Assembly: GCA_964454175.1 (NCBI GenBank)
Contig: CAYVSA010000001.1
Span: 9,993-73,992 of the forward strand
Origin: an uncultured Pseudomonadota bacterium
GTDB lineage: Bacteria > BMS3Abin14
Direction of reading: 5' to 3'
DNA length: 64,000 bases
In this document: piece after piece, positions 8,925-47,550 of the stretch
Numbering within the stretch: the first letter of the stretch is position 1
Layout of the letters: each line of letters starts with the position of its first letter
Program-made: the position numbers and the translations under genes
Notes under the pieces: generated by a model
The model's database searches: none
Seen by the model: the letters and a program-made list of their open reading frames with translations, nothing else
Told to the model about the DNA's origin: nothing

Positions 8925-8926
8925 GA

Positions 8927-20676: not shown

Positions 20677-20880
20677 GACTGCCCTCTGACCGGGTCTTTA
20701 CAGGCTGGAATCTCGCTGTATAACAGGCCCGGTAAAGTCGAGATTGTGAATAACCCGACAGTTTGAGAAGATTAGCACAGGTCACCTTTGGTGTCAATTA
20801 ACATGCGGGTTTCACTAACATCGTGCCAGCAATATTAACCCCATACAGGCAAAGTTTAAGATACATCTGGGTACAAGTCC

Positions 20881-21750: not shown

Positions 21751-21770
21751 TTCGTCCTCCCGCCTGTATT

Positions 21771-28025: not shown

Positions 28026-29198
28026 TTGGCAAGACAGGAGATAATGACCATTAATATGGGTCCCCACCACCCCTCGACCCACGGGGTGCTCAGGGTGATC
28101 CTTGAGCTGGACGGTGAGACGGTGATAAATGCCGTGCCGGATATCGGCTATCTCCACCGGGGCATAGAAAAACTCGCCGAGCACAAGAAATACATCCAGG
28201 TCCTGCCGCTCACCGACAGGCTGGATTACCTCGCTTCTGGTACGAACAACCTCGCCTATATCCTGGCAGTGGAAAAGCTGCTGGGTCTCGAAGCCCCCAG
28301 ACGGGCCAGGTACATCAGAACCATATTCGCCGAGCTGACGAGGATCGGGAGCCATCTTCTCTGGCTGGGTACTCACGCCGCCGACATCGGAGCCATGACT
28401 GTGCTCCTTTACGGCATGAGAGAGCGGGAGGACGTCCTGGACATCATCGAGGAAACAGCGGGTACACGCCTCATGATGACGTACTTCAGGCCAGGCGGAG
28501 TCGTGAGGGATCTCCCTCCCGGCTTTGACAAGAAGATAAAGAGCTTCCTGAAAACATTCCCCGCAAGGATCGACGAATATGAAAGGCTTCTGACGAAGAA
28601 CAGGATATGGCTCCAGAGGACTGTGGGCATCGGTACGATAAGCCGGGATGAAGCCGTATCCCTGGGGCTTTCGGGTCCGGCTCTGCGCGGTTCGGGAGTG
28701 GACTGGGATATCAGGCGTGACGAGCCTTACGAGGCCTATGATGAGATCGAGTTCGACGTCCCCGTTTATGAGGGCGGCGATGTCTATTCCAGGTATCTGG
28801 CCAGAATAGGTGAACTCAGGCAGAGCGTGCGAATGCTTCTTCAACTCGTGGAAGGCCTGCCCGAAGGGCCATATATCGAAAGGACCGCCAAGTACGTACT
28901 CCCTGCCAAAGAAAGGCTGGACAGCTCCATGGAGGCCATGATCCACCACTTCAAGCTCGTTGTTGAGGGTATGACCCCCCCTGTGGGCGAAGTGTACTCC
29001 ACAATAGAATCTCCCAAGGGTGAGATCGGGTTCTACATCGTGAGCGATGGCAAGCCGCATCCGTACAGGCTCAGGATCAGGCCGCCGTCTTTCGTAAACC
29101 TCCAGTCCCTGTTAACCATGGCAAAGGGGAACATGATTGCTGATGTTGTAGCAATTATCGGAAGTCTTGACATAGTTCTTGGGGAAATTGATCGGTAG
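28026..29198 (+). CDS. nuoD: NADH-quinone oxidoreductase subunit D
   Basis: 'MTINMGPHHPSTHGVLR' matches the 49-kDa subunit. Confidence 0.95.
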   Translation: MARQEIMTINMGPHHPSTHGVLRVILELDGETVINAVPDIGYLHRGIEKLAEHKKYIQVLPLTDRLDYLASGTNNLAYILAVEKLLGLEAPRRARYIRTIFAELTRIGSHLLWLGTHAADIGAMTVLLYGMREREDVLDIIEETAGTRLMMTYFRPGGVVRDLPPGFDKKIKSFLKTFPARIDEYERLLTKNRIWLQRTVGIGTISRDEAVSLGLSGPALRGSGVDWDIRRDEPYEAYDEIEFDVPVYEGGDVYSRYLARIGELRQSVRMLLQLVEGLPEGPYIERTAKYVLPAKERLDSSMEAMIHHFKLVVEGMTPPVGEVYSTIESPKGEIGFYIVSDGKPHPYRLRIRPPSFVNLQSLLTMAKGNMIADVVAIIGSLDIVLGEIDR

Positions 29199-29200: not shown

Positions 29201-29683
29201 ATGATGAAACTGTTCGATTCGGAAGAAACAAAAGAGATGGAGGGCATAGCATTACGCTATGCGGCTCCTGCATCCGCGATAATGCCGCTCCTGCACTTTG
29301 TACAGGAAAGGAAGGGCTATCTGGCCGAGGAGTACCTGGTCTTTATCGCCGATTTTCTGGAGATCCCCCACGTCAGGGCCTTCGAGGTGGCAACCTACTA
29401 CACCATGTACTTCACTAAACCCGTAGGCAGGCACCTCATTCAAGTCTGCAGAAATCTGAGCTGCTCTGTAAACGGTGCGCCCGAAGTTATTGCATCTCTC
29501 AGGGAGACCCTGGGTGTTGGCATCGGTGAGACCACTTCCGACGGCATGTTCACGATCGTGGAAGTTGAGTGCATCGGCGCCTGCGACAAGGCGCCAGCCA
29601 TGATGGTCGACGACAAACTCTTCGAGATGGTCAGCCCTGAAACCCTGGGGATGATACTGGATTCATACAGGAAGACCGCGTGA
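29201..29683 (+). CDS. nuoE: NADH-quinone oxidoreductase subunit E (2Fe-2S)
   Basis: The ligands CRNLSC...CIGACDKAP and a thioredoxin-like fold are present. Confidence 0.9.
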   Translation: MMKLFDSEETKEMEGIALRYAAPASAIMPLLHFVQERKGYLAEEYLVFIADFLEIPHVRAFEVATYYTMYFTKPVGRHLIQVCRNLSCSVNGAPEVIASLRETLGVGIGETTSDGMFTIVEVECIGACDKAPAMMVDDKLFEMVSPETLGMILDSYRKTA

Positions 29684-33665: not shown

Positions 33666-34133
33666 ATGATCGATATCAGCCAGCTCAAGGCAATATCCTC
33701 CCTTGAAGGAGTGTCAGAGGACGCACTGTCGGAATTGGCCAGGGTAATGCAGAAGAGGGTCTACAAAGACTCTGACCCTATTTTTAACGAGAACACCGAA
33801 GGCGGTGACCTTTATCTCGTGGGCGAGGGATCCGTGAAGTTGGAGAAAAGGGCAAAAGAGGGAGAGGCCCAGAGCCTGTCAGTGGTTCGTGCCGGCGATT
33901 TCCTCGGGATAATGACCTTCCTTGTGGGCGGCAAGCACTCTGCAAGCGCCGTGGCCCATGACGACTGCACACTTTACGTCCTGGACAAGGCCTCTTTTGA
34001 TGCTTTCGTTGAAAAGTTCCCGGCCGATGCCAACAGCATCTTCATGATATTTATAGAACGGCTCATCGAATCAGTCAGAAGCATGTATGAGCGGTACATC
34101 GATATGGTCAACTACATGTGGAGGTGGCGGTGA
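33666..34133 (+). CDS. Standalone cyclic nucleotide-binding (CAP effector-like) domain protein
   Basis: 'LYLVGEGSVKLEK...VVRAGDFLGIMTFLVGGKHSASAVAHDDCTLYVLDKASF' is a cNMP-binding beta-barrel. There is no DNA-binding HTH. Its stop overlaps the next start by 16 nt. Confidence 0.6.
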   Translation: MIDISQLKAISSLEGVSEDALSELARVMQKRVYKDSDPIFNENTEGGDLYLVGEGSVKLEKRAKEGEAQSLSVVRAGDFLGIMTFLVGGKHSASAVAHDDCTLYVLDKASFDAFVEKFPADANSIFMIFIERLIESVRSMYERYIDMVNYMWRWR

Positions 34134-34651
34134 ACCCTGAGGAAATTGAGGGATACGAGGAAGAAGAAGAGCTCGATCTTTCTCCCGTCAATGACATACT
34201 GAGTGACCTGGGCGACGCGAAGGGGATGCTGATCCCGCTTCTGCAGGAAGTCCAGAAGGTTTTCGGGTATGTACCTGAAGACGCCGCCAATATGGTTGCC
34301 GATGGGCTGGGCCTTTACCGCAGCCAGGTCTATGGTGTTCTGACATTTTATACGCAGTTCCACCTGAGCCCCAGGGGACGGCATATCATACGCGCATGTT
34401 CCGGGACTGCCTGCCACGTCAGGGGCGGTAAGAGCGTTATTGCCAGGCTGGAGAATCTCCTGGAGATCGAACATGGAGAGACCACAGAAGACGGGCTTGC
34501 TTCCTTTGAAAAAGTTGCCTGCCTCGGGGCGTGCGGTCTCGCCCCGGTGATCATGATAGACAACGATGCCTTCGGACAGGTGGATCCAACAAAGACCGAG
34601 CGGATAATCGAGAACCTGCGCGAGGTGTCCGGCACACAGAAAAGTGATTGA
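34118..34651 (+). CDS. Second NuoE/HoxE/FdsG-like 2Fe-2S subunit
   Basis: The ligands 'CSGTACHVRGG...CLGACGLAPV' are present. It has an acidic N-terminal extension. Confidence 0.85.
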   Translation: MEVAVNPEEIEGYEEEEELDLSPVNDILSDLGDAKGMLIPLLQEVQKVFGYVPEDAANMVADGLGLYRSQVYGVLTFYTQFHLSPRGRHIIRACSGTACHVRGGKSVIARLENLLEIEHGETTEDGLASFEKVACLGACGLAPVIMIDNDAFGQVDPTKTERIIENLREVSGTQKSD

Positions 34652-34681
34652 TCGGCCGTAACAGGGAGGGCCGAAAGAGAT

Positions 34682-37600
34682 ATGTCTAAAAGTTCAAACG
34701 ATAAACTGATCGTACTGGGAATGGGCACATGCGGCCTGGCTTCCGGCGCGCGTGGAGTCCTCTCCCAGGTTGAAGAGGAACTTACCAGCCTCAAGCTGGA
34801 TGTGCCTATCCTTAAGACCGGCTGCATAGGGATGTGCTACCAGGAGGTTCTCCTGGACGTGTCACTCCCTGGCCGTACCAGGGTCACCTACGCCAAAGTT
34901 CAGCCCGAGATGGTCTCAAAGATCATTGAAAGCCATGTCGTAAAGGGAAAACCCGTAAACGATTACGCCATCGGGCAGATACAGCAGAACGGTGAAAAGG
35001 CGTATAAGGGCATCCCGACTTACGACGAGATGGATTTCTTCGCGAAGCAAAAGCGGATCGTTCTTCGGCGCTGTGGATTCATCGACCCTGACAAGATCGA
35101 GGATTACCTTGACACAGATGGTTACAAGGCCGCGGAAAAGGCCCTGACAACGCTATCGCCGACCGTGATCAGGGAGATCGTCAAGAAGGCTGGCCTGAGG
35201 GGCCGCGGCGGAGGCGGATTCCCCACCGGTCTCAAGTGGGAGTTCTGCGCCACGGCGGCAGGGGAACCGAAGTACCTCATCTGTAACGCGGATGAGGGTG
35301 ATCCGGGCGCCTTTATGGACAGGAGCGTTCTGGAAGGTGACCCGCACGCGCTGCTGGAGGGAATGATCATTGCGGCCTATGCTATCGGCGCAGAATACGG
35401 CTATATTTACTGCCGCGCAGAGTATCCCCTGGCGATCGAGAGACTGGGAACCGCTATTGCCCGGGCCGAGGAAAAAGGATTCCTGGGAAAGAATATATTC
35501 GGTACTGACTTTTCCTTTACCCTCAGGATCAAGGAGGGCGCCGGAGCTTTCGTCTGCGGCGAGGAAACTGCTCTCATGGCGTCCATCGAGGGTAAACGGG
35601 GCATGCCCCGATCGAGACCGCCTTTCCCTGCTCATAAAGGTCTCTGGGGTAAACCTTCCAACATCAACAACGTCGAGACTTTTGCCTGTGTCGCCCCCAT
35701 CATCCTTGGAGGCGCTGACAGTTATTCCTCGATCGGGACCGAAGGCACCAAGGGCACGAAAGTTTTCGCCCTTACCGGAAAGATCAATAACACGGGGCTG
35801 ATCGAGGTCCCCGCCGGTACCCAGCTAAAGGAGATAATTTACGATATCGGGGGCGGTATTGTTGGTGGAGGCAAGTTCAAAGCCGCCCAGCTCGGGGGCC
35901 CTTCAGGAGGCTGCCTGCCCGCCGAGATCGTTGAAACACCCATCGATTACGATTCACTGATCGAAGCCGGAGCCATGATGGGTTCGGGCGGCGTAGTTAT
36001 AATGGACGAGCGGACTTGCATGGTGGACGTTGCCAGGTTCTTTTTGAACTTCACAACTTCCGAGTCCTGCGGGAAATGTGTGCCCTGCCGCCTTGGGACC
36101 AAGACAATGCTCAGCATCCTGGAGCGTATCACCGCTGGCAAAGGTACCATGCAGGACCTTGTCAACCTGGAGGAGATGGGTGCACAGATAAAGACTACTT
36201 CCCTGTGCGGTCTGGGACAGACTGCCCCGAACCCGGTACTTTCCACCATCAGGTACTTCAGACACGAGTACGAGGCCCACATATTAAACAAGAGATGCCC
36301 CGCGGTAGTTTGCAAGGAGGTCATCTCATCACCGTGCCAGCATGTATGCCCTATCGAGACGGATGTTCCAGCATATGTAACCCTTATCGGGCAGGGGAAA
36401 TTCACGGCCGCTCTTGATCTCATCCGCATGACCAATCCCCTCCCGGCTGTCTGCGGCAGGGTCTGCCATCATCCGTGCGAAAGCAAGTGCAGACGCGGAG
36501 AACTGGACAGGCCTATCAGCATCAGAAACCTCAAGAGGGTAGCCTCCGATAACGCTGCCGCCGATGCTGCCACCGGAAAGTACCAGATCAAGTCAAAGAA
36601 GATCTCCGGCAAGGGAAAGAAGGTCGCTATCATCGGGGGCGGGCCTTCCGGTCTCACGGCAGCCCACTTCCTCGCACTCAAGGATTTTTCCCCTGTCATT
36701 TTCGAAAAACAGAGGGTAGCGGGCGGCATGCTTATGCTGGGAATACCTGAGTACCGCCTGCCGAGACAGACACTGAACCATGAGATCAGGGCAATCGAAG
36801 ATATGGGTGTCCAGATCCATTACAGCACCCCGGTGGGCGAGGCTGTCTCCTTCGATCAGCTCAGGATGGATCATGAAGCTGTATTTATTGCATCCGGTGC
36901 CCACGTCGATCTCAAGATGGGCATACCAGGTGAGGATTCCGAAGGGGTGTATGAAAGCCTCAGCTTCCTCAGAAGGGTTAACCTGGGAGAAGAAGTGGCA
37001 CTGGGAAACAAGGTTGCAGTCGTTGGTGGAGGCAATACCGCCATTGACGCATCGAGGATCGCCAGGCGCCTGGGTGCTGACGTGACGATCCTCTACAGGA
37101 GAACGCAAAATGAAATGCCCGCTGATGACATGGAGATCCATGAGGCTCTCCTGGAGGGTATAGAGCTGGAAACGCTCGTGGCCCCGGTGAAGGTACTTTC
37201 GTCCGGCGGGAAAATGACTGGCGCCACCTGTATCAGGATGGAACTTGGCGAGCCTGATTCTTCCGGAAGACGAAGGCCGGTTCCCATAGAGGGGTCCGAG
37301 TTTGACATTCACCTCGACAACCTGATCGTTGCAGTTTCAGGCAAGCCCGACCTTTCATACCTCACCGACAAACACGGGATAGGACTTTCCAGGTGGGATA
37401 CGGTGGATGTTCACCCCTACACGCAGATGACCAACGTGGAAGGCGTGTTTGCCGGGGGCGACGTGGTTACAGGCCCATGGATGGTCATAGATGCAATTGC
37501 AGCCGGCAAGAGGGCGGCAGCACACATGGAGCTGTTCTTAAACGGGGAGGAAGTTGCCCCATTGTACGATGTCACAAAACCCAATATCTCGGGAATAGAG

Positions 37601-37765
37601 GCAATTGAGCTTACGGATGAGGACATGACCCTTACGAGGCCTGACATGCCCACACTCGAAGTTGTCAAGAGGTTAAAGGACTTCGCTGAGGTTGAACTGG
37701 GTTTTTCCAAAGAAGAGGCTATGAAAGAGGCCAGGCGCTGCCTGCGCTGTGACATTTCTGATTAA
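34682..37765 (+). CDS. Fusion protein: thioredoxin-like 2Fe-2S domain + NuoF/HoxF/FdsB-like FMN-NADH domain + GltD-like NAD(P)H/FAD domain
   Basis: The N-terminus 'GMGTCGLASGA...CIGMCYQ' precedes the NuoF core with 'GRGGGGFPTGLKW', 'ESCGKCVPCRLG' and 'CGLG'. After that comes 'CQHVCPIE...CGRVCHHPCESKC', then the Rossmann folds 'VAIIGGGPSGLTAA' and 'VAVVGGGNTAID', and a C-terminal 'RCLRCD'. Length is 1027 aa. Confidence 0.85.
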   Translation: MSKSSNDKLIVLGMGTCGLASGARGVLSQVEEELTSLKLDVPILKTGCIGMCYQEVLLDVSLPGRTRVTYAKVQPEMVSKIIESHVVKGKPVNDYAIGQIQQNGEKAYKGIPTYDEMDFFAKQKRIVLRRCGFIDPDKIEDYLDTDGYKAAEKALTTLSPTVIREIVKKAGLRGRGGGGFPTGLKWEFCATAAGEPKYLICNADEGDPGAFMDRSVLEGDPHALLEGMIIAAYAIGAEYGYIYCRAEYPLAIERLGTAIARAEEKGFLGKNIFGTDFSFTLRIKEGAGAFVCGEETALMASIEGKRGMPRSRPPFPAHKGLWGKPSNINNVETFACVAPIILGGADSYSSIGTEGTKGTKVFALTGKINNTGLIEVPAGTQLKEIIYDIGGGIVGGGKFKAAQLGGPSGGCLPAEIVETPIDYDSLIEAGAMMGSGGVVIMDERTCMVDVARFFLNFTTSESCGKCVPCRLGTKTMLSILERITAGKGTMQDLVNLEEMGAQIKTTSLCGLGQTAPNPVLSTIRYFRHEYEAHILNKRCPAVVCKEVISSPCQHVCPIETDVPAYVTLIGQGKFTAALDLIRMTNPLPAVCGRVCHHPCESKCRRGELDRPISIRNLKRVASDNAAADAATGKYQIKSKKISGKGKKVAIIGGGPSGLTAAHFLALKDFSPVIFEKQRVAGGMLMLGIPEYRLPRQTLNHEIRAIEDMGVQIHYSTPVGEAVSFDQLRMDHEAVFIASGAHVDLKMGIPGEDSEGVYESLSFLRRVNLGEEVALGNKVAVVGGGNTAIDASRIARRLGADVTILYRRTQNEMPADDMEIHEALLEGIELETLVAPVKVLSSGGKMTGATCIRMELGEPDSSGRRRPVPIEGSEFDIHLDNLIVAVSGKPDLSYLTDKHGIGLSRWDTVDVHPYTQMTNVEGVFAGGDVVTGPWMVIDAIAAGKRAAAHMELFLNGEEVAPLYDVTKPNISGIEAIELTDEDMTLTRPDMPTLEVVKRLKDFAEVELGFSKEEAMKEARRCLRCDISD

Positions 37766-37813
37766 CGGGAGCAGCCTGCGTTAAAGCAGTTAATGAGGAG
37801 TAGGGAAAAGAGC

Positions 37814-40597
37814 ATGTTCAACGTCATCGTAGACGGCAGACCGGTAAGCGTACCCAGGGGCTCAACGATCCTGGAGGCAGCCAGGAAACTGGAAATCGAA
37901 ATTCCGACTTTCTGCGACCACAAGCACCTGTTCCCATACGGATCGTGCCGTATGTGTGTTGTTGAGCTTGAGGGCTCAGACAGGCTGTTTGCCTCCTGTG
38001 TTACGCCGGTTACCGACAAGATGGAGATATATACTGACACTGCCAGGGTCAAGGCGGCAAGAGAGACTGTGCTTGAGCTTCTCCTGACCTATCATCCCCT
38101 GGAGTGTCCCGTGTGCCCTCAGTCGGGCCGCTGCATGCTGCAGGACATGACCTTTGAGCACGGGAAGGACAGCGGCAGGTTCGGCTCGGTGGGCGTTGAC
38201 AAGAGAATTGACTACCTCTCGCCTCTAATAGAGATGAACCAGAACAGGTGCATTCTCTGCGGAAGATGCGTGAGAATATGCGATGAGGTTCAGGGCGAGG
38301 GGGAGCTGGATTTTGTGAATCGCGGGTTCCCCACTGTGGTTGAACCGTCCTTTGAAAGGCCGATGGATTGTGAATTCTGCGGCCAGTGTGTACAGGCCTG
38401 CCCCGTGGGCTCGCTGTACAGCAGAATCTACAAGCACACGGCCCCATCGTGGGAACTGACTCCGGTAAGGACTACATGCCCCTTCTGCGGCGTAGGCTGC
38501 ACCCTCAATCTTGAGGTCAAGGGGGATCATATCTATCACGTACTGGGAGTGGATGACGAGGGCTCCAATAACGATGGGAACCTGTGCTGTAAAGGCAGGT
38601 TCGGATACGAATACGTCCATAGCCCAGAGAGAATAATGCAGCCAATGGTGCGCAAGGGCGAAGACCTCGAACCCGCAACGTGGGAAGAGGCCTACGATCG
38701 CATCAAAGAGGGCTTCGGCCGGATTCGTGACGAGCACGGACCGGATGCCCTTGGCGGTATAGCATCCGCAAGGTGCACTAACGAAGAAAATTATCTCTTC
38801 CAGAAGTTCATGAGAGCCGCGATAGGAACAAATAACATTGACTCTGTTGCCAGATTTGGCCACTTCCCCGGGATGGAGGCACTGCTAAAAGCTTTCGGCG
38901 TCGGGGCACCCACCAACTCCCTGGCAGACCTGGCACACACTGATCTGATTTTTGCCATCGATTCCAACATCACTGAAGACGACCATGTGGCGGGGTTGAA
39001 GGTTCTCAAACGGGTTCGCTACGGTGGGGCTCAGCTTATTGTTGCCAATAGCCGCAAGATCAAACTTACAAAATTTTCAGATGCCTGGATGAGGCACAGG
39101 CCCGGTTCCAGTGTGGCACTGTTAAATTCGATGGCGTGGGTTGTTCTGGAGGAGGGGCTGGAAGATGAGGAGTTCTGCCGCAAGAGGGTTGGCGGAATAG
39201 ATGATCTGAGAGCTTTTCTCAAAGACTACGCGCCTGAAAAGACGGCCGCCATTACTGGTGTGGCCGCAGAAGCAGTGCGGGAAGCCGCCAGGGCCATCGC
39301 TTCCTCCGCGAACGTCACCATACTGCTCACCCTCGGCGGTGCGAGCCCATACACCGGGGAAGACACCGTTGCAGCAGCAGCCAACCTCGCTCTCATTACC
39401 GGCAACGTTGGCCGCCAGGGCGCGGGGATAATTCCCTTGTCCGAGTACAACAATGTTCAGGGCTCCATGGATGTGGGGGCCCTCGCCCAGTTCCTGCCCG
39501 GTTACCAGAGCGTTACAGATAGCGGAATAAGATCCTGGTTCGAGGAGACCTGGGGAGTTGACCTGCCCGGGAAGCCTGGGCTTGAAGCTATGGAGATGTT
39601 TGCCGCGGCGAAAGAGGGAAAACTCCGCGGGCTGTACATAATGGGGGAGAACCCGCTCTCTGCATTCCCGGACAGGGAGTCGGTGATCGACGGTCTTTCA
39701 AGCCTGGACTTTCTTGTGGTTCAGGACATGTTCCTGACGCAGACAGCCCTCTTTGCCGACGTGGTATTGCCCACCTCTGGCGGGCCGGAAAAGAACGGTA
39801 CCTTCACCAACACCGATCGCAGGGTCCAGAGGGTGCGAAAGGCGATCAAGTCGCCGGGAGATACCAGGGACGACTGGAGGATCCTTACCGATCTCTCCGC
39901 GGCGATGGGGTATCCTGCCGAATATGCCGATGTTATGGAGATCACGGAAGAGATTGCAAGCGTGGTTCCTTTCTACGCCGGGATAACGCCTGAAAGGCTT
40001 GAGGGAAACGGCCTGCACTGGCCCTGTCCCAGGGAGGATCACCCCGGGACGGATTTTCTTCATGAGAACAGATTCCCTTCAGGGCTTGGCCGCACTCGCG
40101 CAATTGACGGCAGGCTCCAGAAGAAATCCTCTGCGAACTACCCTTTCCTGCTGGTGCCGGGCCTTCTCCTGTACCACTCCGGGACGACCACCACGAGAGC
40201 TAAAGGTCTCAACGAAGTTGCTCCTATCGCCCTTGCGGAGATAAACCCCGAAGACGCCCGGAAGCTGGACGTAAAATCCGGAGACTGGGTAAAGCTCACC
40301 AGTCTGAGAGGTATGGTGGACATAAAAGTTCTCGTCACGGATAAGACTATGGAAGGGACGATCTTCGCACCCACTCACTACCACGGCACACCTGTCAATG
40401 CCCTGCTGACTTACGACCACGTGAACGAGAATGCCGTCACAAGCGTCTCCGTGGAGAGGATCGAGAAGAGATTAGAAGATGAGAGAACAGAGCCGGTGGA
40501 AGGACAGGTAACCAGGCTGAAGAAGATCGTTAAGGATATACAGAAGAAGAGGCAAAGAGCCCACCATGGACAGGGCTCCGACGCCTCGGGAGGATGA
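37814..40597 (+). CDS. Second NuoG-like / degenerate formate-dehydrogenase-alpha-like subunit (FdsA/SfrA-like)
   Basis: The 2Fe-2S 'CDHKHLFPYGSCRMC', 'HPLECPVCPQSGRC', 'CILCGRCVRICDE' and 'CPFCGVGCT' are present. The motif 'VARFGHFPG' aligns with FdhF 'CARV-U-HGPS', with Gly at the Sec/Cys position but Arg and His kept. I place the start at the internal Met 'MFNVIVDG'. Confidence 0.8.
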   Translation: MFNVIVDGRPVSVPRGSTILEAARKLEIEIPTFCDHKHLFPYGSCRMCVVELEGSDRLFASCVTPVTDKMEIYTDTARVKAARETVLELLLTYHPLECPVCPQSGRCMLQDMTFEHGKDSGRFGSVGVDKRIDYLSPLIEMNQNRCILCGRCVRICDEVQGEGELDFVNRGFPTVVEPSFERPMDCEFCGQCVQACPVGSLYSRIYKHTAPSWELTPVRTTCPFCGVGCTLNLEVKGDHIYHVLGVDDEGSNNDGNLCCKGRFGYEYVHSPERIMQPMVRKGEDLEPATWEEAYDRIKEGFGRIRDEHGPDALGGIASARCTNEENYLFQKFMRAAIGTNNIDSVARFGHFPGMEALLKAFGVGAPTNSLADLAHTDLIFAIDSNITEDDHVAGLKVLKRVRYGGAQLIVANSRKIKLTKFSDAWMRHRPGSSVALLNSMAWVVLEEGLEDEEFCRKRVGGIDDLRAFLKDYAPEKTAAITGVAAEAVREAARAIASSANVTILLTLGGASPYTGEDTVAAAANLALITGNVGRQGAGIIPLSEYNNVQGSMDVGALAQFLPGYQSVTDSGIRSWFEETWGVDLPGKPGLEAMEMFAAAKEGKLRGLYIMGENPLSAFPDRESVIDGLSSLDFLVVQDMFLTQTALFADVVLPTSGGPEKNGTFTNTDRRVQRVRKAIKSPGDTRDDWRILTDLSAAMGYPAEYADVMEITEEIASVVPFYAGITPERLEGNGLHWPCPREDHPGTDFLHENRFPSGLGRTRAIDGRLQKKSSANYPFLLVPGLLLYHSGTTTTRAKGLNEVAPIALAEINPEDARKLDVKSGDWVKLTSLRGMVDIKVLVTDKTMEGTIFAPTHYHGTPVNALLTYDHVNENAVTSVSVERIEKRLEDERTEPVEGQVTRLKKIVKDIQKKRQRAHHGQGSDASGG

Positions 40598-40601
40598 TGA
40601 G

Positions 40602-41600
40602 ATGATCTGCCCGGAATGCAATCTGCTCATACCGGAGGACAGCCGGTTCTGCAAGGAGTGCGGCTATAAACTGGAGGCCAGTGTGGAGGAGCGTGATGCT
40701 CTCTCCAACCAGGAAAAGGCGGAGAAGCTTTACCGGGAGGGTATCGTCCAGTACCACCAGGGTCAGTTTGACGAGGCTATTTCACTTTGGGACGAGGCGG
40801 TTGGTCTTATTCCGGACTTTCAAATGACGAACTACTACCGGGGAGTGGCGTACTACGACAAGGGCATGCTGTCTGTTGCCATGGAGTGCTTTAAAAAATC
40901 TGAGGCTTCGCATCCCACCTCCTCTGCTGTCCACTACCGTCTTGGTCTGACTTATTATGCATTGGGGCTTTTAAGCGAATCTGAATACCACTTCAAGAAA
41001 GTGGAGGCACTGATACCCAATACCGCCCAGATCCACTACAGGCTGGGCCTTCTGTACCAGAAAAACGCGGCCCTGGACGAGGCCGTTTCAGAACTGCTGA
41101 AATCACTGGAATTTTCACCTGACTTTGCCAGAGCTTACTTCACACTCGGAGTGACTTATTTCCAGAAGGGAATGCTTGCCGAAGCAGCCGAGGCGCTGCG
41201 CAAAGTTGTGGATATTTCACCGAGATATGTCATGGCCTACTATCACCTGGGCATTGTGCTGTTTCACAAGGGCAACCTTCCCGAAGCCATCAAGGCATTT
41301 GACGAGGCGGTTCTGCTGTCCCCGAACTTCACGGCGGCCTACTACCACCTGGGAGTGTCCCACGCCAGGAAGGGTGCCCACGAAGATGCAGTGTCAAGCT
41401 TCATCAAGGTGAACGGTCTGGACCCCATGGATTCCTCAGCTCTCTACCACCTTGGGAACAGTTATGTGCATCTGGGGATGCTGGACAAGGCTGAAGATAC
41501 ACTGCAGGAGGCACTGAGGCTTAACCCCGACAACTCCGAGGCCTACTTCCTCCTTGAAAAGGTTGGAGAGATCAAGCGCTCCGGGGCGTTGGAGTACTAG
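40602..41600 (+). CDS. Zinc-ribbon + TPR-repeat protein
   Basis: The N-terminal 'CPECN...CKECGY' ribbon is followed by about 8 TPR repeats (AYYxLG/AxxxxxxAL periodicity). I place the start at 'MICPECN', after the upstream stop. Confidence 0.6.
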   Translation: MICPECNLLIPEDSRFCKECGYKLEASVEERDALSNQEKAEKLYREGIVQYHQGQFDEAISLWDEAVGLIPDFQMTNYYRGVAYYDKGMLSVAMECFKKSEASHPTSSAVHYRLGLTYYALGLLSESEYHFKKVEALIPNTAQIHYRLGLLYQKNAALDEAVSELLKSLEFSPDFARAYFTLGVTYFQKGMLAEAAEALRKVVDISPRYVMAYYHLGIVLFHKGNLPEAIKAFDEAVLLSPNFTAAYYHLGVSHARKGAHEDAVSSFIKVNGLDPMDSSALYHLGNSYVHLGMLDKAEDTLQEALRLNPDNSEAYFLLEKVGEIKRSGALEY

Positions 41601-41612: not shown

Positions 41613-42632
41613 ATGGATAACACAACCATGTACATACTTCTTTCTCTTTTCAAGATCGTTCTGGTCCTTGCCATAACGCTGACTTCGGTCCCGATAATGG
41701 TCTGGGTGGAGAGGAAGGTGTCCGGCCACATCCAGAACAGGCACGGACCGCTCTACGTTGGGCCCTTCGGGCTGCTGCAGCCCTTTGCCGACGTTGCCAA
41801 GCTGCTCCTTAAGGAAGACATTATACCCACCGAGGCGGACAAGGTGCTTTACGTTCTGTCGCCGCTCATGTCCTTTGTACCGGCGCTTCTGACTTTTGCG
41901 GTCATACCCATCGGGCCGCACCTGAACATAACAGACATCAACATCGGCATAGTCTACGTTCTGTCCGTTTCATCGCTGGGTGTATACGGGCTTGTTATGG
42001 CAGGGTGGTCGTCCAACAATAAATACGCCCTCCTGGGCGGTCTCAGGTCAGCGGCGCAGATGATAAGCTACGAGATAACCCTGGGGCTGTCCATTATAGG
42101 CGTTCTTATGTACTCCAGGTCACTTTCAATGGTCAGGATCGTGGAGATGCAGGCAGACACGTGGTTCGTCCTGCCCCAGTTCCTGGGATTCATTCTGTTT
42201 CTCGTGGCATCTTTTGCAGAGACCAACAGGCTGCCCTTTGACCTTCCGGAGGCGGAACAGGAGCTCATAGCGGGCTACCACGTCGAGTATTCCAGCCTCA
42301 AGTTCGCCCTGTTCTTCCTTGCCGAGTACGTTGCCATGCTCTCGGCTTCGTGTCTTATCGTCACCCTTTTCTGGGGGGGCTGGCTGCCGATCCCTTACAT
42401 CGGACCGCTGGTGGAGGGCCTCCTGCCGCAGGTTGTAGTAATGTACGTAATGCCTATCCTGTGGTTCCTGGTTAAGGTTGCTTTCTTCATGTTCTTCTTC
42501 GTGTGGGTTCGCTGGACCTTCCCCAGGCTGCGTTACGACCAGCTGATGTCACTCGGCTGGAAAGTGCTGCTTCCCCTGGCGGTATTAAACGTTTTCATCT
42601 CTGGCGTCATCAGGATGTCGGGAGTTATGTAG
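41613..42632 (+). CDS. nuoH: NADH-quinone oxidoreductase subunit H
   Basis: 'VWVERKVSGHIQNRHGP' and 'RLPFDLPEAEQELIAGYHVEYS' are present. Confidence 0.95.
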   Translation: MDNTTMYILLSLFKIVLVLAITLTSVPIMVWVERKVSGHIQNRHGPLYVGPFGLLQPFADVAKLLLKEDIIPTEADKVLYVLSPLMSFVPALLTFAVIPIGPHLNITDINIGIVYVLSVSSLGVYGLVMAGWSSNNKYALLGGLRSAAQMISYEITLGLSIIGVLMYSRSLSMVRIVEMQADTWFVLPQFLGFILFLVASFAETNRLPFDLPEAEQELIAGYHVEYSSLKFALFFLAEYVAMLSASCLIVTLFWGGWLPIPYIGPLVEGLLPQVVVMYVMPILWFLVKVAFFMFFFVWVRWTFPRLRYDQLMSLGWKVLLPLAVLNVFISGVIRMSGVM

Positions 42633-42643: not shown

Positions 42644-43090
42644 TTGGGTTTGATCACGAATATATTCCAGACTGACCTTTTAAAAGGTCTTTCACTGACA
42701 CTCAAGAACTTCTTCGTTCGGCCTGTCACCCTGAGGTACCCGGAAGAGAAGTGGGAGATGCCCGAACGGTTCAGGGGCGCCCAGGTGCTCAAGAGGCACG
42801 AAGATGGAAAAGAACGATGTGTGGGCTGCGGCCTGTGTGGGGAGATCTGTCCTTCCAGCGCTATTACTATTGTCACCTCGGAGGGAGTTGACCACGCAAA
42901 GAAGATAGACTTCTACCAGGTCGATCTTGGCCTTTGCATCTACTGTGGTTTCTGCGAGGAGGTTTGCCCGGTCAACGCAGTTTTCATGGGTAAGGATTAC
43001 GAGCTGTCTGTGACCGATCCCGGCAGGCTCAAAGTTTCCAAAGAACAGATGCTCGAGAAGGGGGACTCCCCCCGATACGATAAACTCTAG
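42644..43090 (+). CDS. nuoI: NADH-quinone oxidoreductase subunit I (2x4Fe-4S)
   Basis: 'CVGCGLCGEICP' and 'CIYCGFCEEVCP' are present. Confidence 0.95.
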   Translation: MGLITNIFQTDLLKGLSLTLKNFFVRPVTLRYPEEKWEMPERFRGAQVLKRHEDGKERCVGCGLCGEICPSSAITIVTSEGVDHAKKIDFYQVDLGLCIYCGFCEEVCPVNAVFMGKDYELSVTDPGRLKVSKEQMLEKGDSPRYDKL

Positions 43091-43097: not shown

Positions 43098-43613
43098 GTG
43101 ATGGGCCTTCAGGACATATTTTTCTACTATTTTGCCATCGTATCCGTTGTTACTGCTCTGCTGGCGGTCTCTCGATACAATCCTGTCCACTCGGTGCTGT
43201 TCCTGGTTCCCTGCTTTTTCCACATAGCGGGGCTGTTCGTGCTGCTGGGGGCAGAGTTCCTGGCTGCCATCCAGATACTGATCTACACAGGTGCCATCAT
43301 GGTCCTGTATCTGTTTGTCATCGCCCTGCTTAACCTCTCAGGCATCAGGGGACGCAAGATCACTCACCGGCAGAGTTTCCTCGCGGCCATCGCCGTGCTG
43401 GTCCTTGTTGTCCAGCTCGTAGTGCTGGCTATCACAGCGACCTTCCCCGGGCCTTTCGAGAAATTCGCGTCGGCGTCGTTTCTGGGTAACACAGAGGCGG
43501 TGGGGTCGGTGATGTATACAACCTTCCTGTTCCCCTTCGAACTGGCTTCCCTGGTTCTGCTCGTCGCTATTTTCGGGGCGGTTGTCCTTGCCAAGAGGGA
43601 GGCGGGTGAATGA
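43098..43613 (+). CDS. nuoJ: NADH-quinone oxidoreductase subunit J
   Basis: It is a hydrophobic 171-aa protein in the conserved operon position, with '[21 protein letters not shown]'. Confidence 0.85.
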
Positions 43614-43912
43614 TCACACTGACCCACTATCTGGTGCTGGCCGCTATTATTTTCCTGATCGGAGTTCTCGGTGTGCTCATGAGGCGCAACATCATCATAA
43701 TTCTCCTGTCAATTGAACTGATGCTCAACGCCGTCAATATCAACCTTGTGGCCTTCTCACATTACTTTCACAACATGGCTGGCCAGGTTTTCGTGTTTTT
43801 CGTTCTTACCGTTGCCGCTGCAGAAGCTGCGGTGGGATTGGCTATTGTCGTCGCACTCTTCCGCAACCGCGAGACGGTCAACGTGGATGAGATCAACCTG
43901 ATGAAGGGCTAG
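43610..43912 (+). CDS. nuoK: NADH-quinone oxidoreductase subunit K
   Basis: It is a 100-aa 3-TM protein with '[18 protein letters not shown]'. Confidence 0.9.
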
Positions 43913-43923: not shown

Positions 43924-45858
43924 ATGTTAGAAGCTGTAGCCCTGGTTCCTCTTTTTCCGCTGTTGGCGGTGCTGACAAACCTCCTGCTTGGCAGAAGGCT
44001 GTCGAGGGCTGCCGTGGGTGTTCTGGCCTGCGGAGCGCTCGCAGCGTCATTCCTGGCTTCGGTAGTTGCAGTGTTCGGCCTGGCTACGGCAGAGCATGGG
44101 GCCAGGTCTTTTACCTACACGCTCTACGAGTGGATCGGCTCCGGGAGCTTCACCCTGGACCTGGGATTGTTACTGGACCCACTCTCGGCGGTGATGATCC
44201 TGGTGGTGACCGGCGTTGGGTTCTTGATCCACGTCTACAGCATCGGCTACATGCACCACGACGAGGGTGTAAGGAGATATTTCCTCTACCTCAACCTCTT
44301 CGTTTTTGCCATGCTCCTGCTCGTGCTCGGAGACAGCTACCTGCTCATGTTTGTCGGCTGGGAGGGAGTTGGCCTTTGCTCCTACCTGCTCATCGGGTTC
44401 TGGTTTAAAAAAGAGAGTGCAAGCTCAGCCGGCCGCAAGGCCTTCGTGGTTAACAGGGTGGGGGACTTCGGTTTCATCCTTGGCATGCTTCTCATCACCG
44501 TCAAATTCGGTACCCTGTCTTACAATGAGATCTTCGCCAATGCCGGGCACCTGTTCGCCAAGGGTGATCCCACGGTGACAATAATAACGCTCCTGCTCTT
44601 TGTGGGGGCCACAGGGAAGTCCGCCCAGCTTCCCCTGCACGTCTGGCTTCCAGACGCAATGGAGGGCCCGACCCCGGTTTCGGCCCTCATCCATGCTGCA
44701 ACAATGGTTACTGCCGGCGTCTACATGATCTGCCGGAGCCATGTTCTTTACGAACTCGCACCACTGTCCATGACGGTGGTTGCTGTCATAGGTGTCACCA
44801 CTGCCTTCTTTGCCGGGACTATCGCCCTTGTACAGAACGACATCAAGAGGGTGCTTGCCTATTCCACGGTGAGCCAGCTCGGATATATGTTCCTTGCTGC
44901 AGGCGTGGGCGCCTACACTGCCGCTATCTTTCACCTCATGACCCACGCTTTTTTCAAAGCCCTTCTCTTTATGGGTTCGGGCAGCGTTATACACGGCCTG
45001 GACGGAGAACAGGACATTCGTAAAATGGGCGGCTTAAAGGACATTATGCCCGTCACACACAAGACGTTCCTCATTGCTTCCCTCGCCATATCGGGGATCC
45101 CGCCGCTTGCCGGGTTCATGTCAAAGGATGAGATACTCTACTCGGCATTTAACTCCAGTCATGGCGGCGGAGCAGGGTTTATATTGTGGCTGGTGGGAAT
45201 AATCACAGCGCTCATGACCGCTTTTTACATGTTCAGGCTTGTTTACAGGACTTTTTACGGTGAATCGAGGCTGGATCCTGAAGTCGCCAAACACGCTCAC
45301 GAATCACCTCCAGTAATGACAGTGCCGCTTTCGATACTGGCTTTCCTTTCCATAGTGGGTGGTTTCGCGGGTGTACCCATATTCAAAAAGTTAAACATCA
45401 TGCACAACTGGCTGGGCCCGTTGTTCGAGGCAGTAGCGGAACACGGGGCAGATGCAGCCGAGACAGCACACCACCTTTCTACCGAGCTGGGCCTCATGGG
45501 ACTGTCGGTCCTGGTGGCGGCAGGGGGCATAGGTCTTGCGTTCCTCATCATCCTGCGCAAGCCGGAAGTGTCCGAGGAGCTGAGAAACGATTACAGTTTC
45601 CTCTACGACCTGTTCCTTAACAAGTGGTGGGTCGACGAACTGTACGACACGGTAATCATAAAACCCCTCAGGGCAGTATCCCGTTTCTTCTGGACGGATT
45701 TCGACGTCAAGCGGATAGACGGGGTTCTTCACGGGACTGCCGAGGCCGCACAGCGTTCCGGCGGGTTCCTGGCAAGCCTGCAGACGGGTTTTGTGCAGAA
45801 CTACGCACTGGTGATGACTGTCGGCGTAGCCCTGATGCTTGTGCTGGCCTTCTTTTAG
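43924..45858 (+). CDS. nuoL: NADH-quinone oxidoreductase subunit L
   Basis: It is an antiporter-like subunit with 'WLPDAMEGPTPVSALIHAATMVTAGVY' and a long C-terminal amphipathic extension. Confidence 0.95.
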   Translation: MLEAVALVPLFPLLAVLTNLLLGRRLSRAAVGVLACGALAASFLASVVAVFGLATAEHGARSFTYTLYEWIGSGSFTLDLGLLLDPLSAVMILVVTGVGFLIHVYSIGYMHHDEGVRRYFLYLNLFVFAMLLLVLGDSYLLMFVGWEGVGLCSYLLIGFWFKKESASSAGRKAFVVNRVGDFGFILGMLLITVKFGTLSYNEIFANAGHLFAKGDPTVTIITLLLFVGATGKSAQLPLHVWLPDAMEGPTPVSALIHAATMVTAGVYMICRSHVLYELAPLSMTVVAVIGVTTAFFAGTIALVQNDIKRVLAYSTVSQLGYMFLAAGVGAYTAAIFHLMTHAFFKALLFMGSGSVIHGLDGEQDIRKMGGLKDIMPVTHKTFLIASLAISGIPPLAGFMSKDEILYSAFNSSHGGGAGFILWLVGIITALMTAFYMFRLVYRTFYGESRLDPEVAKHAHESPPVMTVPLSILAFLSIVGGFAGVPIFKKLNIMHNWLGPLFEAVAEHGADAAETAHHLSTELGLMGLSVLVAAGGIGLAFLIILRKPEVSEELRNDYSFLYDLFLNKWWVDELYDTVIIKPLRAVSRFFWTDFDVKRIDGVLHGTAEAAQRSGGFLASLQTGFVQNYALVMTVGVALMLVLAFF

Positions 45859-45957: not shown

Positions 45958-47550
45958 ATGGAAACACTTAACATGCCAATCTTATCGGCGATCGTCTACC
46001 TTCCAGCTGTTGGTGCGCTCCTGCTGGCCCTCTTTGTGCCGGGCCGTAAAACAGGGCTGGTGAAGAAGGTCGCCCTGGGTGTTGCTCTGGCTGATTTCGT
46101 ACTGTCTCTTCTGCTCCTCGCAAGGTTCAACGTCGGGTCCGGCGACTTTCAGCTAGTTGAAAGAGTGAACTGGATTTCCGGGATTGGGATCCAGTACCTG
46201 ATGGGTGTTGACGGAATAAGCCTGCTCCTGGTCCTGCTCACAACAATGCTGGGGGCTCTGGCAATACTCTCGTCTTTCACGGCCATCACCGACAGGGTGA
46301 AGGAGTACATGGTATGCCTGCTCCTTCTGCAGACCGGTATGCTGGGTGTGTTTTTCGCCCTTGATATAGTGCTCTTTTACGTGTTCTGGGAAGTTATGCT
46401 AATTCCCATGGCGCTGCTCATCGGTATATGGGGAGGCCCGAGGCGGGTCTATGCTGCGGTTAAGTTCTTCCTGTACACGCTCGTCGGGTCCCTTTTCATG
46501 CTCATCGGCTTCCTGGTCATCTATTTTTCCTATCATTCAGCCACCGGGATCTACACTTTTGACCTGACGCGGCTGATGGCGGCCGATTTCCCGTCAAACG
46601 TGCAGACATGGGCCTTCTGGGCGCTGTTTCTTGGCTTTGCCATCAAGGTGCCGCTCTTCCCGTTCCACACATGGCTCCCTGATGCTCACGTTGAGGCACC
46701 CACTGCGGGCTCTGTGATCCTGGCAGGCGTACTGCTCAAAATGGGAACCTACGGATTCATACGTTTTTCAATTCCCGTCCTTCCGGAGGCCTCCATTAAA
46801 GCGGTTCCGGCCATCGCTACCCTCTCAATAATCGGCATCATTTACGGGGCCCTCGTTGCCTGGGTGCAGCATGATGTGAAGAAACTGGTAGCTTACTCTT
46901 CGGTGAGTCACCTTGGATTCGTGATGATCGGGCTGTTCACCTTCACTATCCAGGGCATTCAGGGCAGTGTCCTTCAGATGATCAACCACGGCATTTCAAC
47001 CGGTGCACTGTTCCTCCTGGTCGGAGTACTATACGAGCGGCGCCATACAAGGATGATGGACGATTTCGGTGGTCTTGCTGCACAGCTGCCGCTTTTTGCC
47101 GCTGTCTTCGGGATAGTCACATTCTCTTCAATCGGTCTGCCGGGACTGAACGGATTTATCGGGGAGTTCCTGATACTCCTTGGCACCTTCAAGGCAGGCA
47201 TGTACGGGTTTGGAGCGCTCGCTGCCACGGGGATCATCCTTGGAGCTGTGTACATGCTGCACATGTACAAGAACGTCATGTTCGGCGAGATCGTACACGA
47301 TGAAAACAAAAAGATATCAGATTTCAATTTCAGGGAGATCATAACACTGGCCCCCCTGGTAGTACTCATTTTCTGGGTTGGCCTTTATCCCAAGCCGTTT
47401 CTGAATATCCTGGAGCCCTCGGTAACCAGGGTCGTGGTAAGAATGGACACGGCAAGGAGCGGGATGGAGCAACTTAAAAACGACAAGACCGGCGAAGTTC
47501 AAGTGGCTGGGACCGAAGACCTGCACATCGCTGTCGATAATAGGGAGTAG
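45958..47550 (+). CDS. nuoM: NADH-quinone oxidoreductase subunit M
   Basis: 'WLPDAHVEAPTAGSVILAGVLLKMG' is present. Confidence 0.95.
   Translation: METLNMPILSAIVYLPAVGALLLALFVPGRKTGLVKKVALGVALADFVLSLLLLARFNVGSGDFQLVERVNWISGIGIQYLMGVDGISLLLVLLTTMLGALAILSSFTAITDRVKEYMVCLLLLQTGMLGVFFALDIVLFYVFWEVMLIPMALLIGIWGGPRRVYAAVKFFLYTLVGSLFMLIGFLVIYFSYHSATGIYTFDLTRLMAADFPSNVQTWAFWALFLGFAIKVPLFPFHTWLPDAHVEAPTAGSVILAGVLLKMGTYGFIRFSIPVLPEASIKAVPAIATLSIIGIIYGALVAWVQHDVKKLVAYSSVSHLGFVMIGLFTFTIQGIQGSVLQMINHGISTGALFLLVGVLYERRHTRMMDDFGGLAAQLPLFAAVFGIVTFSSIGLPGLNGFIGEFLILLGTFKAGMYGFGALAATGIILGAVYMLHMYKNVMFGEIVHDENKKISDFNFREIITLAPLVVLIFWVGLYPKPFLNILEPSVTRVVVRMDTARSGMEQLKNDKTGEVQVAGTEDLHIAVDNRE

Follow-up and report, generated by a model that had tools for sequence, protein, structure and literature searches.

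The window analysed here, a stretch of 64,000 nucleotides from an uncultured Pseudomonadota bacterium (contig CAYVSA010000001.1), carries the full set of genes nuoA to nuoN of a respiratory complex I. Five tightly packed co-directional genes split this set between nuoG and nuoH, as defined by a map of the open reading frames (ORFs) and by Pfam/NCBIfam profiles (Table 1). These genes encode a protein with a cyclic-nucleotide-binding (cNMP) fold, a second NuoE-like subunit (E'), a second NuoF fused to a GltD-like module (F'), a second NuoG-like subunit (G') and a zinc-ribbon protein with TPR repeats. Judged by their sequences, E', F' and G' belong to the Bfu lineage (HydBC/Stn/NfnABC) and are no duplicates of the local NuoEFG. 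The arrangement suggests a so far undescribed connection of NADPH, or of ferredoxin in sister lineages, to complex I. The reading that we narrowly favour over a soluble transhydrogenase, and hold only tentatively, is that of a Bfu-type second N-module feeding complex I via G'. The gene content and coordinates of the original prediction are identical to those of the ORF map, every domain it named was matched by a profile, and the embedding in a complete 14-gene complex I operon was confirmed by the ORF map and the family profiles.

The genes nuoA to nuoN are co-directional, their N-module products score above the curated cut-offs and all the Fe-S cysteine ligands of the canonical NuoEFG are present. 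From nuoG to nuoH, the successive junctions are a gap of 13 nt, an overlap of 16 nt, gaps of 30 and 27 nt, an overlap of 32 nt and a gap of 12 nt. The GC content is uniform across the insert, internal promoter-like and terminator-like sites are not more numerous than expected from shuffled sequences, and a GGAGG Shine-Dalgarno sequence lies upstream of the start of the cNMP gene. No repeats, mobile-element genes or scars were found at the borders of the insert.

The same five genes were found between nuoG and nuoH in genomes of five other GTDB species (L001-L005), including the closed 2.03-Mb chromosome CP070698.1, and in 11 metagenome contigs (L084-L093 and L121), so that synteny in related genomes, a check put forward with the original prediction, is now documented. 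The divergent contig L128 also carries the insertion (54% identity for the cNMP-fold protein, 58% for E', 53% for G' and 34% for the TPR protein) and shares even the upstream ATP-synthase and aminotransferase genes in syntenic order. In L129, the insertion appeared to be broken, but the interruption is a run of N, i.e. an assembly gap, and a decayed operon was rejected. Across protein identities from 54% to 89%, in at least 17 assemblies, the position is always nuoG-nuoH, and the canonical nuoEFG genes lie upstream of the insert in every contig covering that region. The Mfd protein of the hosts displays 55-80% identity inside this group; its identity to named taxa does not exceed 42%, and proteins of Desulfuromonadales/Geobacter type come nearest. 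The insertion-bearing genomes form one deep-branching uncultured clade of anaerobic bacteria.

In at least 17 independent assemblies, closed chromosomes included, each of the five genes is intact. Since dS is saturated, selection is reported as pN against pS, with the nearest full-length relative (L084) as reference: pN is 0.07-0.12 for the inserted genes, for a saturated pS of about 0.7, and 0.15-0.16 for the canonical nuoE and nuoG. The amino-acid identities agree with this picture, the inserted genes being at least as constrained as canonical nuoE and nuoG. The insert is under strong purifying selection; it did not arise by misassembly and is not a remnant. A remnant without function, a recent insertion of mobile DNA or an artefact of assembly, two of which the original prediction had named as possible refutations, could be argued from the unusual location and from the broken appearance of L129. 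These explanations are refuted by the intact ORFs, by pN values far below pS, by the uniform GC content, by the lack of flanking repeats and mobile genes, by the N-run in L129 and by the identical insertion in independent assemblies.

Subunits E' and F': Bfu-type core and GltD arm

F' is about 45% identical to the local NuoF. Its residues 1-549 align end to end with the BfuB chains 7T2R_B, 9N5U_B, 8OH5_B, 9BOV_B and 7Q4V_B with 693-739 bits, whereas the same protein scores just 404 bits to Nqo1 and 394 bits to FdsB. The label "Fds/Sfr-like" first given to the module was thus imprecise, F' being of BfuB type with 700-739 bits to HydB, StnB and NfnB. The FMN/NAD(H) motifs GRGGGGFPTG and CNADEGDPGAF are present. 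Following the cluster names of the cryo-EM papers on NfnABC (PMC11829005, PMC12018979), the ligands of the B1 [4Fe-4S] cluster are Cys463, Cys466, Cys469 and Cys509, as in the BfuB core of 7t2r_B, 9n5u_B and 8oh5_B. The residues Cys446, His533, Cys539 and Cys544 map to the B2 zinc site of Thermococcus sibiricus NfnB (Cys437, His524, Cys529 and Cys534), where Zn is held by three cysteines and one histidine, the latter being a Bfu signature absent from non-bifurcating homologues (PMC12018979). Residues 6-130 match the thioredoxin-like N-terminal domain of BfuB, with three of its B5 ligands located at Cys17 and in the motif TGCIGMC (Cys48 and Cys52), a pattern found in the Sov and Tsi NfnB sequences (Sporomusa ovata and T. 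sibiricus). In Bfu enzymes, this B5 domain holds a [2Fe-2S] cluster or Zn, and the Fd-like C-terminal domain with clusters B3/B4 is the place of ferredoxin docking (PMC12018979). F' was assigned to the Bfu type because the Bfu zinc site and the N-terminal domain are both present and both missing from the local NuoF, in which sequence inspection found no Bfu zinc-site residues, no BfuB N-terminal domain and no C-terminal domain.

The alignment of F' with BfuB stops at residue 549, where the Fer4_20 domain of a GltD module begins, and the CxxCxxCxxxCP motifs of an Fd-like C-terminal domain were not found in F'. The GltD module, which aligns to the GltD domains of 9BOV_A, 8OH5_C (StnC) and 9N5U_A, occupies the position of the ferredoxin-binding domain with clusters B3/B4. 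It contains the Fer4_20 cysteines Cys552, Cys556, Cys591, Cys595, Cys599 and Cys603, the FAD motif VAIIGGGPSG (GxGxxG type) and a second Rossmann motif at the NADPH site, VAVVGGGNTAID...LYRR. We take LYRR to be an NADPH signature of GltD/NfnB-type enzymes, and the GltD arm of F' is predicted from its YRR residues to be specific for NADPH. Since GltD replaces the Fd domain of BfuB, no canonical ferredoxin site is left in the module of the window.

The sister lineages L092 (F' at 8165-9991, 608 aa) and L128 (F' at 10977-12764, 595 aa) possess unfused F' proteins of BfuB type that keep the ferredoxin-like domain for two [4Fe-4S] clusters, with two CxxCxxCxxxC motifs. Their cores are 84% and 68% identical, respectively, to that of the window. 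The GltD fusion to a second NuoF reported in the original prediction is therefore present, but it is no mere addition, because GltD stands in the place of a domain kept by L092 and L128. Trees were obtained by neighbour-joining (NJ) with limited sampling. In the tree of the F cores, all F' sequences and L077, a locus outside nuo operons described below, form one clade (80%) with L128 in basal position (100%); the window-type sequences group with L092, the GltD-bearing L077 remaining outside (78%). The C-terminal arm has been exchanged at least twice, since cores that are 84% identical carry either an Fd-type or a GltD arm. F' is clearly no duplicate of the local NuoF. A capacity of the module for electron bifurcation or confurcation is putative.

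E' carries the [2Fe-2S] ligands Cys94, Cys99, Cys135 and Cys139, as expected for the C1 cluster of a BfuC-like subunit. Its identity is 36% with the local NuoE and 45-50% with the E subunits of standalone trios with an F/GltD fusion. The position of the start codon of E' is uncertain, as the alignment with orthologues begins only at residue ~14-19.

Two other systems share parts with the module. The NAD+-dependent formate dehydrogenase FdsGBA of Rhodobacter capsulatus (6TG9) has NuoE- and NuoF-like partners and provides the best structural match of G', but it is soluble and non-bifurcating, and FdsB has neither the Bfu sites nor GltD (394 bits to F', where BfuB chains reach 739). Geobacter SfrAB pairs a GltD-type subunit with a non-catalytic partner resembling a formate dehydrogenase (FDH). 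F' does not have the N-terminal Fer2 plus GltD architecture of SfrB (PRK12814): it scores 463.3 bits with NF009454 (cut-off 916), over residues 549-1025 only, and differs from SfrB by its full BfuB core with FMN/NAD(H) sites. In SfrAB as in the window, an NADPH-binding Fe-S flavoprotein of GltD type occurs with an FDH-like non-catalytic partner (PMC3543383).

Subunit G', its relatives and the accessory proteins

The best PDB match of G' is FdsA of R. capsulatus (RcFdsA; 608.8 bits over residues 4-873), and the score with TIGR01591, 661.9 bits, is just under the cut-off of 666.25. Five Fe-S clusters are predicted from the ligands Cys41/52/55/69, His101/Cys105/108/114, Cys153/156/159/203, Cys163/193/196/199 and Cys229/232/236/265. 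All 20 ligands, including those of the His-ligated N5-type cluster, are invariant in the full-length G' orthologues examined. The active site of RcFdsA type (Cys386, His387, Arg587) is not conserved. The molybdenum ligand Cys386 is replaced by Gly356 (nt 38858-38860; ARFGH against ARVCH) and the catalytic Arg587 by Ser550 (nt 39440-39442; PLSEYNNVQG against PLRGQNNVQG). Gly356 is fixed in every orthologue covering the motif, L128 included, and Ser550 in all window-type copies covering it, L128 having Pro. Nine active FDHs have 124 invariant positions in common in their pterin domains; 80 of these are kept and 44 lost in G', and canonical NuoG keeps 57. The losses of G' occur in blocks (DHC to DS[VI], Y.M.ITQH to [LI].L.GASP, RGQ to SEY and TTGR to [VI]PG[LT]), and the G' of L128 is more degenerate still (SRWGL, PEFANSQG). 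Because the 20 Fe-S ligands are kept while the Sec/Cys and Arg residues of FDH (Sec, selenocysteine) are fixed as Gly and Ser, G' is an electron wire in which the FDH domain is burnt out, and no catalyst. The FDH ancestry first proposed for this subunit agrees with its best structural match, but a functional FDH is ruled out. Gly356, Ser550 and the degenerate pterin blocks liken G' to the large subunit of Stn with its catalytically inactive FdhF-like domain; no GltD domain was found in G', unlike the large NuoG-like subunit of the Nfn-Bfu/Stn enzymes.

We considered whether G' could still be an active molybdo- or tungsto-enzyme with a new substrate, its metal having no protein ligand as in arsenite oxidase, in which case the module would be an NAD(P)H-linked oxidoreductase co-expressed with complex I. 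The near-cut-off score with TIGR01591, the retention of His357 and Lys267, the fixed and non-random character of the substitutions and a MoaA gene behind a molybdenum/tungsten cofactor (Moco) riboswitch in the window are consistent with this. However, the 44 invariant pterin positions were lost block-wise, the further degeneration in L128 resembles drift and not a conserved new site, and NuoG and the FdhF domain of StnC have followed the same course. We regard this explanation as improbable. The riboswitch, found with 63.5 bits (RF01055), belongs to the leader of the MoaA-like radical-SAM ORF; the true start of MoaA must be downstream of the riboswitch. The organism thus makes Moco despite the pterin-dead appearance of G'.

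A basic C-terminal tail of about 40 aa (aa ~890-934, nt 40460-40594; GQVTRLKK.V..IQ.K…SGG) is conserved in window-type G' and was not found in the G' of L128, in canonical NuoG, in the G subunits of Nuo-Bfu operons or in active FDHs. Its nucleotides overlap the start of the TPR gene, and the tail could serve as a peptide to which the TPR protein docks.

Relatives of the module exist outside this type of operon. F/GltD fusions of full length occur in large numbers, at identities of about 53%. Among the standalone loci, all seven that have a G gene display the order E - F/GltD - G. Six of these trios (L076, L078, L080-L083) lie in or beside genes of the Wood-Ljungdahl pathway (CODH/ACS, AcsE-like pterin-binding protein, MTHFR and FTHFS), and the seventh (L079) adjoins hydrogenase-maturation and antiporter-like genes. 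They resemble the window by the NuoF-GltD fusion (53-56% identity over the full length) and by E (45-50%) and G (39-45%), but their G keeps the FDH active site, and none is in a nuo operon or accompanied by a TPR gene. In L076 and L078-L080, from which motifs were extracted, G contains CAR[LY](U/C)H and, on contigs that extend over it, PLRGQ[NS]NVQG; the site residue of FdhA is Sec in L076 and L078 and Cys in L079 and L080. The standalone trios are thus real NAD(P)H-linked FDHs or CO2 reductases. No description of an enzyme of the NuoE - NuoF/GltD - FdhA type was found in the searched literature; the relatives with Sec-FdhA seem to represent a CO2 reductase type that is abundant and uncharacterised, mostly in Wood-Ljungdahl clusters. 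L078 shares four of the five inserted genes, including a homologue of the cNMP-fold protein. In L082, the neighbours of a second E - F/GltD pair are a DUF5981 (MetV-like) gene and the gene of a short NuoG-N-terminal protein, a hint that methylene-tetrahydrofolate reductase may be linked as well. The closest relative outside nuo operons is L077 (9489-13087), an E + F/GltD pair lacking a G gene amid housekeeping genes, whose fusion is 74% identical to F' over the full length and 83% in the core. This pair is either a relocated copy or a sign that E + F/GltD works alone.

The G tree separates the active FDHs from G' as a clan of their own (100%). The deeper placement of G' is split, 55% with canonical NuoG and 45% with the FDHs. 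Trees had been proposed with the original prediction; they separate F' from the local NuoF but divide in this way on G'. A direct derivation of G' from the FDH of an F/GltD trio is weakened by the FDH clan and partly rescued by the four-gene match of L078. The NJ trees leave two origins for G', either the FDH of an operon like that of L078 or a G of Nuo type. The identification of G' as a Nuo-Bfu G, which has 1% in the tree, was dropped as unsupported. The complex-I-like signature of its N-terminal part (10 of 16 signature positions) was discarded as a discriminator, being common also to the active FDH of L078.

The cNMP-fold protein consists of a single CNB domain in 155 aa. No DNA-binding or other second domain was found, so that it does not have the architecture of a CRP/FNR-type regulator. 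The phosphate-binding Arg of the CNB cassette is replaced by an invariant His91 (KHSA): the cyclic-nucleotide-binding protein of the original prediction has the fold (PF00027) but not this residue. A C-terminal MVNYMW motif is also invariant. Homologues at 54% identity or more form about 40 clusters, nearly all of ~155 aa, and the homologue beside the Sec-FDH operon of L078 (34% identity, 94 bits) has the same C-terminal motif. The protein is a dedicated accessory that is found also next to a related FDH operon. The TPR protein, cytoplasmic by sequence, carries an N-terminal CPEC...CKEC zinc ribbon; its orthologues are 69-83% identical in L003-5 and L084-90 and 34% identical in L128. Its gene was found only with the nuo-embedded module and was absent from all the standalone loci examined.

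Electron input to complex I or soluble transhydrogenase

The constituent parts belong to known kinds, namely the Bfu family, Nfn-Bfu/Stn, Nuo-Bfu and the FDH-derived NuoG-like subunits. For Geobacter, Deferribacteres, Planctomycetes and Nitrospirae, Schut et al. 2022 (PMC9304861) predicted a complex I with 14 subunits, Nuo-Bfu, whose N-module is of Bfu type. More than 25 contigs (L094-L125) contain such operons, with the order nuoABCD - E - F(BfuB) - G - nuoH...N and without canonical NuoEFG. Identity to G' is 36-48% for their G, the highest values being on a par with the best active FDH (L078, 45%), and identity to F' is 51-57% for their F. The likeness to the window lies in the Bfu-type E/F/G amid a nuo operon, in the degenerate FDH domain of G and in the logic of a three-armed core leading to quinone. 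The original prediction took one N-module per complex I operon as the norm. Bfu N-modules in nuo operons are already described (PMC9304861), but they replace NuoEFG, whereas the module of the window is added to an intact NuoEFG, giving 19 genes; moreover, F' has GltD instead of the Fd-type domain, and the cNMP-fold and TPR genes are extra. In the Nuo-Bfu operons L094-L124 (e.g. L111, 6112-8100), a gap of ~1 kb separates nuoD from E and a small B5-like ORF lies just upstream of F.

The five genes would encode a three-armed Fe-S flavoprotein module of the Bfu lineage recruited to complex I. The first arm would comprise the FMN/NAD(H) site of F' with the [2Fe-2S] cluster of E' beside it. In the second, the GltD module would exchange electrons with NADP(H) via FAD and two [4Fe-4S] clusters at the usual ferredoxin-docking place. 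The third would be the five-cluster wire of G', which would pass electrons to the Q-module of complex I. One operon would then offer two alternative input modules, NuoEFG for NADH only and E'F'G' for NADH and NADPH, the version of L092/L128 using NADH and ferredoxin. The cNMP-fold protein may be a regulatory or accessory subunit and the TPR protein an adaptor or assembly factor; these roles, the direction of electron flow and the physical docking are predictions from sequence.

Transfer from G' to the Q-module is proposed because the third arm has no catalytic end and because the genes are packed between the N-module genes and nuoH. The constant nuoG-nuoH position, with tight junctions in at least 17 assemblies, argues for docking. 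So do the purifying selection on all five genes, the Bfu-specific sites that F' has and the local NuoF lacks, and the retention by G' of all 20 Fe-S ligands and, in its N-terminal part, of 10 of 16 complex-I-type signature positions. Every characterised Bfu member needs a third substrate delivered via BfuA, and quinone via complex I has already been proposed as this partner for "Nuo-Bfu" (PMC9304861). Since Bfu logic demands a third partner, the module lies in a nuo operon and G' lacks a catalytic site, quinone via complex I would be the obvious candidate (L092, L128). By analogy, the E/F/G of Nuo-Bfu must dock because they are the only N-module of their operons, which supports docking of the related E'F'G'; in many of these operons G is 42-48% identical to G', a value matched by the nearest active FDH. 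GltD-type subunits are also predicted NAD(P) coupling sites in complex-I-like "mbx-like" operons (PMC4758237), and such operons with a GltD-type subunit were among the loci found (L060, L066, L069 and L072). The mbx-like complexes combine this subunit with a complex-I-like membrane module but have no NuoEFG-type module.

Several observations weigh against a feed into complex I. The canonical NuoEFG is kept and constrained in every genome, and docking at the same site would thus require two enzyme populations. The N-terminal resemblance of G' to complex I is found also in the active Sec-FDH of L078, its C-terminal domains carry one of 10 complex-I-type signature positions, and the grouping of G' with Nuo-Bfu G receives 1% support (11-24% for F' with Nuo-Bfu F). 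In L125 (15526-21077; partial in L116), a complete NfnABC/Stn-like trio lies between nuoJ and nuoK of an operon of Nuo-Bfu type and encodes a NuoE-like protein of 154 aa, a BfuB of 596 aa with an Fd-like domain and a protein of 687 aa with Fer2, GltD and NuoG-N-terminal parts. Here, independently of the window, an NADPH-linked Bfu module lies within a nuo operon, which means that genes of a soluble transhydrogenase can sit in such operons. The dead FdhF-like domain of Stn serves only for the oligomerisation of a soluble enzyme (PMC10482914), and the E + F/GltD pair of L077 exists alone outside nuo.

The last three points, together with the intact canonical NuoEFG and the C-terminal domains of G' without complex-I-type signatures, are those expected of a soluble Stn/NfnABC-like NADPH:NAD+ transhydrogenase, co-transcribed with complex I but unattached to it. 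This enzyme would supply NADH to the canonical complex I from NADPH produced, for example, by an NADP-linked tricarboxylic acid cycle of Geobacter type; G' would be a structural or oligomerisation scaffold like the FdhF domain of StnC, and the cNMP-fold and TPR proteins regulatory or assembly accessories. The characterised enzymes StnABC of Sporomusa ovata (8OH5), NfnABC of Caldicellulosiruptor (9BOV) and NfnABC of Thermococcus sibiricus (9N5U) provide the best PDB matches of F' and contain the same domain inventory (NuoE-like, HydB-like, GltD, NuoG-like and, in Stn, an inactive FdhF-like domain). However, GltD is within their large NuoG-like subunit and their BfuB retains the Fd domain, whereas in the window GltD is at the C-terminus of BfuB; they are also soluble and normally encoded outside nuo operons, L125 being an exception. 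F' does not have the Fd-like domain that Stn/NfnABC need for ferredoxin and bifurcation. A plain transfer from NADPH to NAD+ needs no five-cluster subunit of 934 aa, yet all the ligands of G' are invariant. As soluble enzymes, the Fd-type sisters L092 and L128 would perform only an uncoupled ferredoxin:NAD+ transfer, which is hard to rationalise, and mere co-regulation does not need a strict position over a deep divergence. The soluble enzyme is a serious competitor, to which we give somewhat less than an even chance. The two alternatives of the original prediction, an extra input of complex I and a co-regulated soluble enzyme linked to NADH, NADPH or ferredoxin, thus both stand with near-equal weight.

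If the second N-module does feed complex I, a bolder possibility, in which we have less confidence than in either of these readings, is a dual-input complex I with two interchangeable N-modules on one Q/P set, the Bfu arm being re-plugged between ferredoxin (L092, L128) and NADPH (window type). It would be the first proton-pumping complex I to oxidise NADPH or, in reverse, to generate it. Complex I is generally regarded as an assembly of modules that existed before it, with NuoG as a formate dehydrogenase that has decayed. In this clade, the assembly of modules would be caught in a second round, with a dead FDH site and an intact wire beside the canonical N-module. The module fixed in the nuo operon is of Bfu type and closest to FDH-associated ones, and its substrate-specifying arm alternates between an Fd-type domain and an NADPH-binding GltD among cores that are 84% identical. 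It becomes testable whether Bfu-type modules dock on complex I, which is predicted and unproven for Nuo-Bfu, and whether a pyridine-nucleotide branch can replace the ferredoxin branch of the Bfu flavobicluster. With docking, an NADPH-linked, energy-conserving complex I would be defined; without it, the module would be a third architecture of Stn/Nfn-type transhydrogenase. A dual input would moreover provide a natural "module-swap" series for the acquisition of N-modules and for the decay of an FDH subunit into a NuoG-like wire.

In the searched literature, which does not cover all journals, we found no description of canonical and Bfu-type N-modules in one nuo operon, of a BfuB with GltD in place of its ferredoxin domain, or of cNMP-fold and TPR genes tied to such a module. 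This agrees with the statement of the original prediction that no complex I with a GltD-fused second N-module was known to it.

Genes and other features of the window

Table 1. Positions of the complex I genes, the inserted genes and other features, numbered from the first letter of the window.
Feature	Position	Strand	Family or basis
nuoA	26572-26958	+	PF00507
nuoB	26955-27506	+	PF01058
nuoC	27510-28016	+	PF00329
nuoD	28026-29198	+	PF00346
nuoE	29201-29683	+	TIGR01958, cut-off passed
nuoF, 431 aa	29685-30980	+	TIGR01959, 577.6 bits (cut-off 558.65)
nuoG, 891 aa	30977-33652	+	TIGR01973, 496.1 bits (cut-off 470.05)
cNMP-fold accessory protein, 155 aa	33666-34133	+	PF00027, 68.9 bits
E', NuoE/BfuC-like [2Fe-2S] subunit, 177 aa	34118-34651	+	PF01257, 168 bits
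F', NuoF'-GltD fusion, 1027 aa	34682-37765	+	PF01512, PF10589, PF14691, PF07992
F' N-terminal half (aa 1-549), BfuB-type core	34682-36328	+	alignment to 7t2r_B, 9n5u_B, 8oh5_B, 718-739 bits
F' C-terminal half (aa 550-1027), GltD/NfnB-like module	36329-37765	+	PF14691, PF07992
G', NuoG/BfuA-like Fe-S subunit with degenerate FdhA domain, 934 aa	37793-40597	+	PF13510, PF10588, PF22117, PF04879, PF00384, PF01568
Zinc-ribbon + TPR protein, 344 aa	40566-41600	+	TPR Pfam families; CPEC...CKEC motif
nuoH	41613-42632	+	PF00146
nuoI	42644-43090	+	Fer4 families
nuoJ	43098-43613	+	PF00499
nuoK	43610-43912	+	PF00420
nuoL	43924-45858	+	PF00361
nuoM	45958-47550	+	PF00361
nuoN	47566-49035	+	PF00361
CBS-CBS-GGDEF diguanylate cyclase	49867-51507	+	
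MoaA-like radical-SAM ORF	2957-4120	-	
Moco riboswitch	4006-4123	-	RF01055
YjbQ-family gene	8412-8924	+	
Free-standing GltD-like Fe-S flavoprotein, 647 aa	8927-10870	+	Fer4_20, Pyr_redox_2
Electron-transfer cluster	17087-22967	-	
GSU2086-family protein and SIS-domain protein	within 17087-22967	-	
Rex-like regulator	18678-19322	-	
NrfH-like multihaem cytochrome	19312-20676	-	
b-type FdnI-like membrane protein	20881-21750	-	
c7/decahaem-like cytochrome	21771-22967	-	

The diguanylate cyclase lies directly downstream of nuoN in the window, where L084 instead has a further GltD-like gene (21725-22690). A free-standing GltD-like protein is also encoded in the window, directly after the YjbQ-family gene; it has an unassigned N-terminus of ~120 aa and scores under the cut-offs of PRK12771 and PRK12814. 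Upstream of nuoA, matches to the Rex operator are at chance level (2 against 2.5 expected). The cluster that contains the Rex-like regulator is Geobacter-like and resembles the quinol oxidoreductases of Cbc type.

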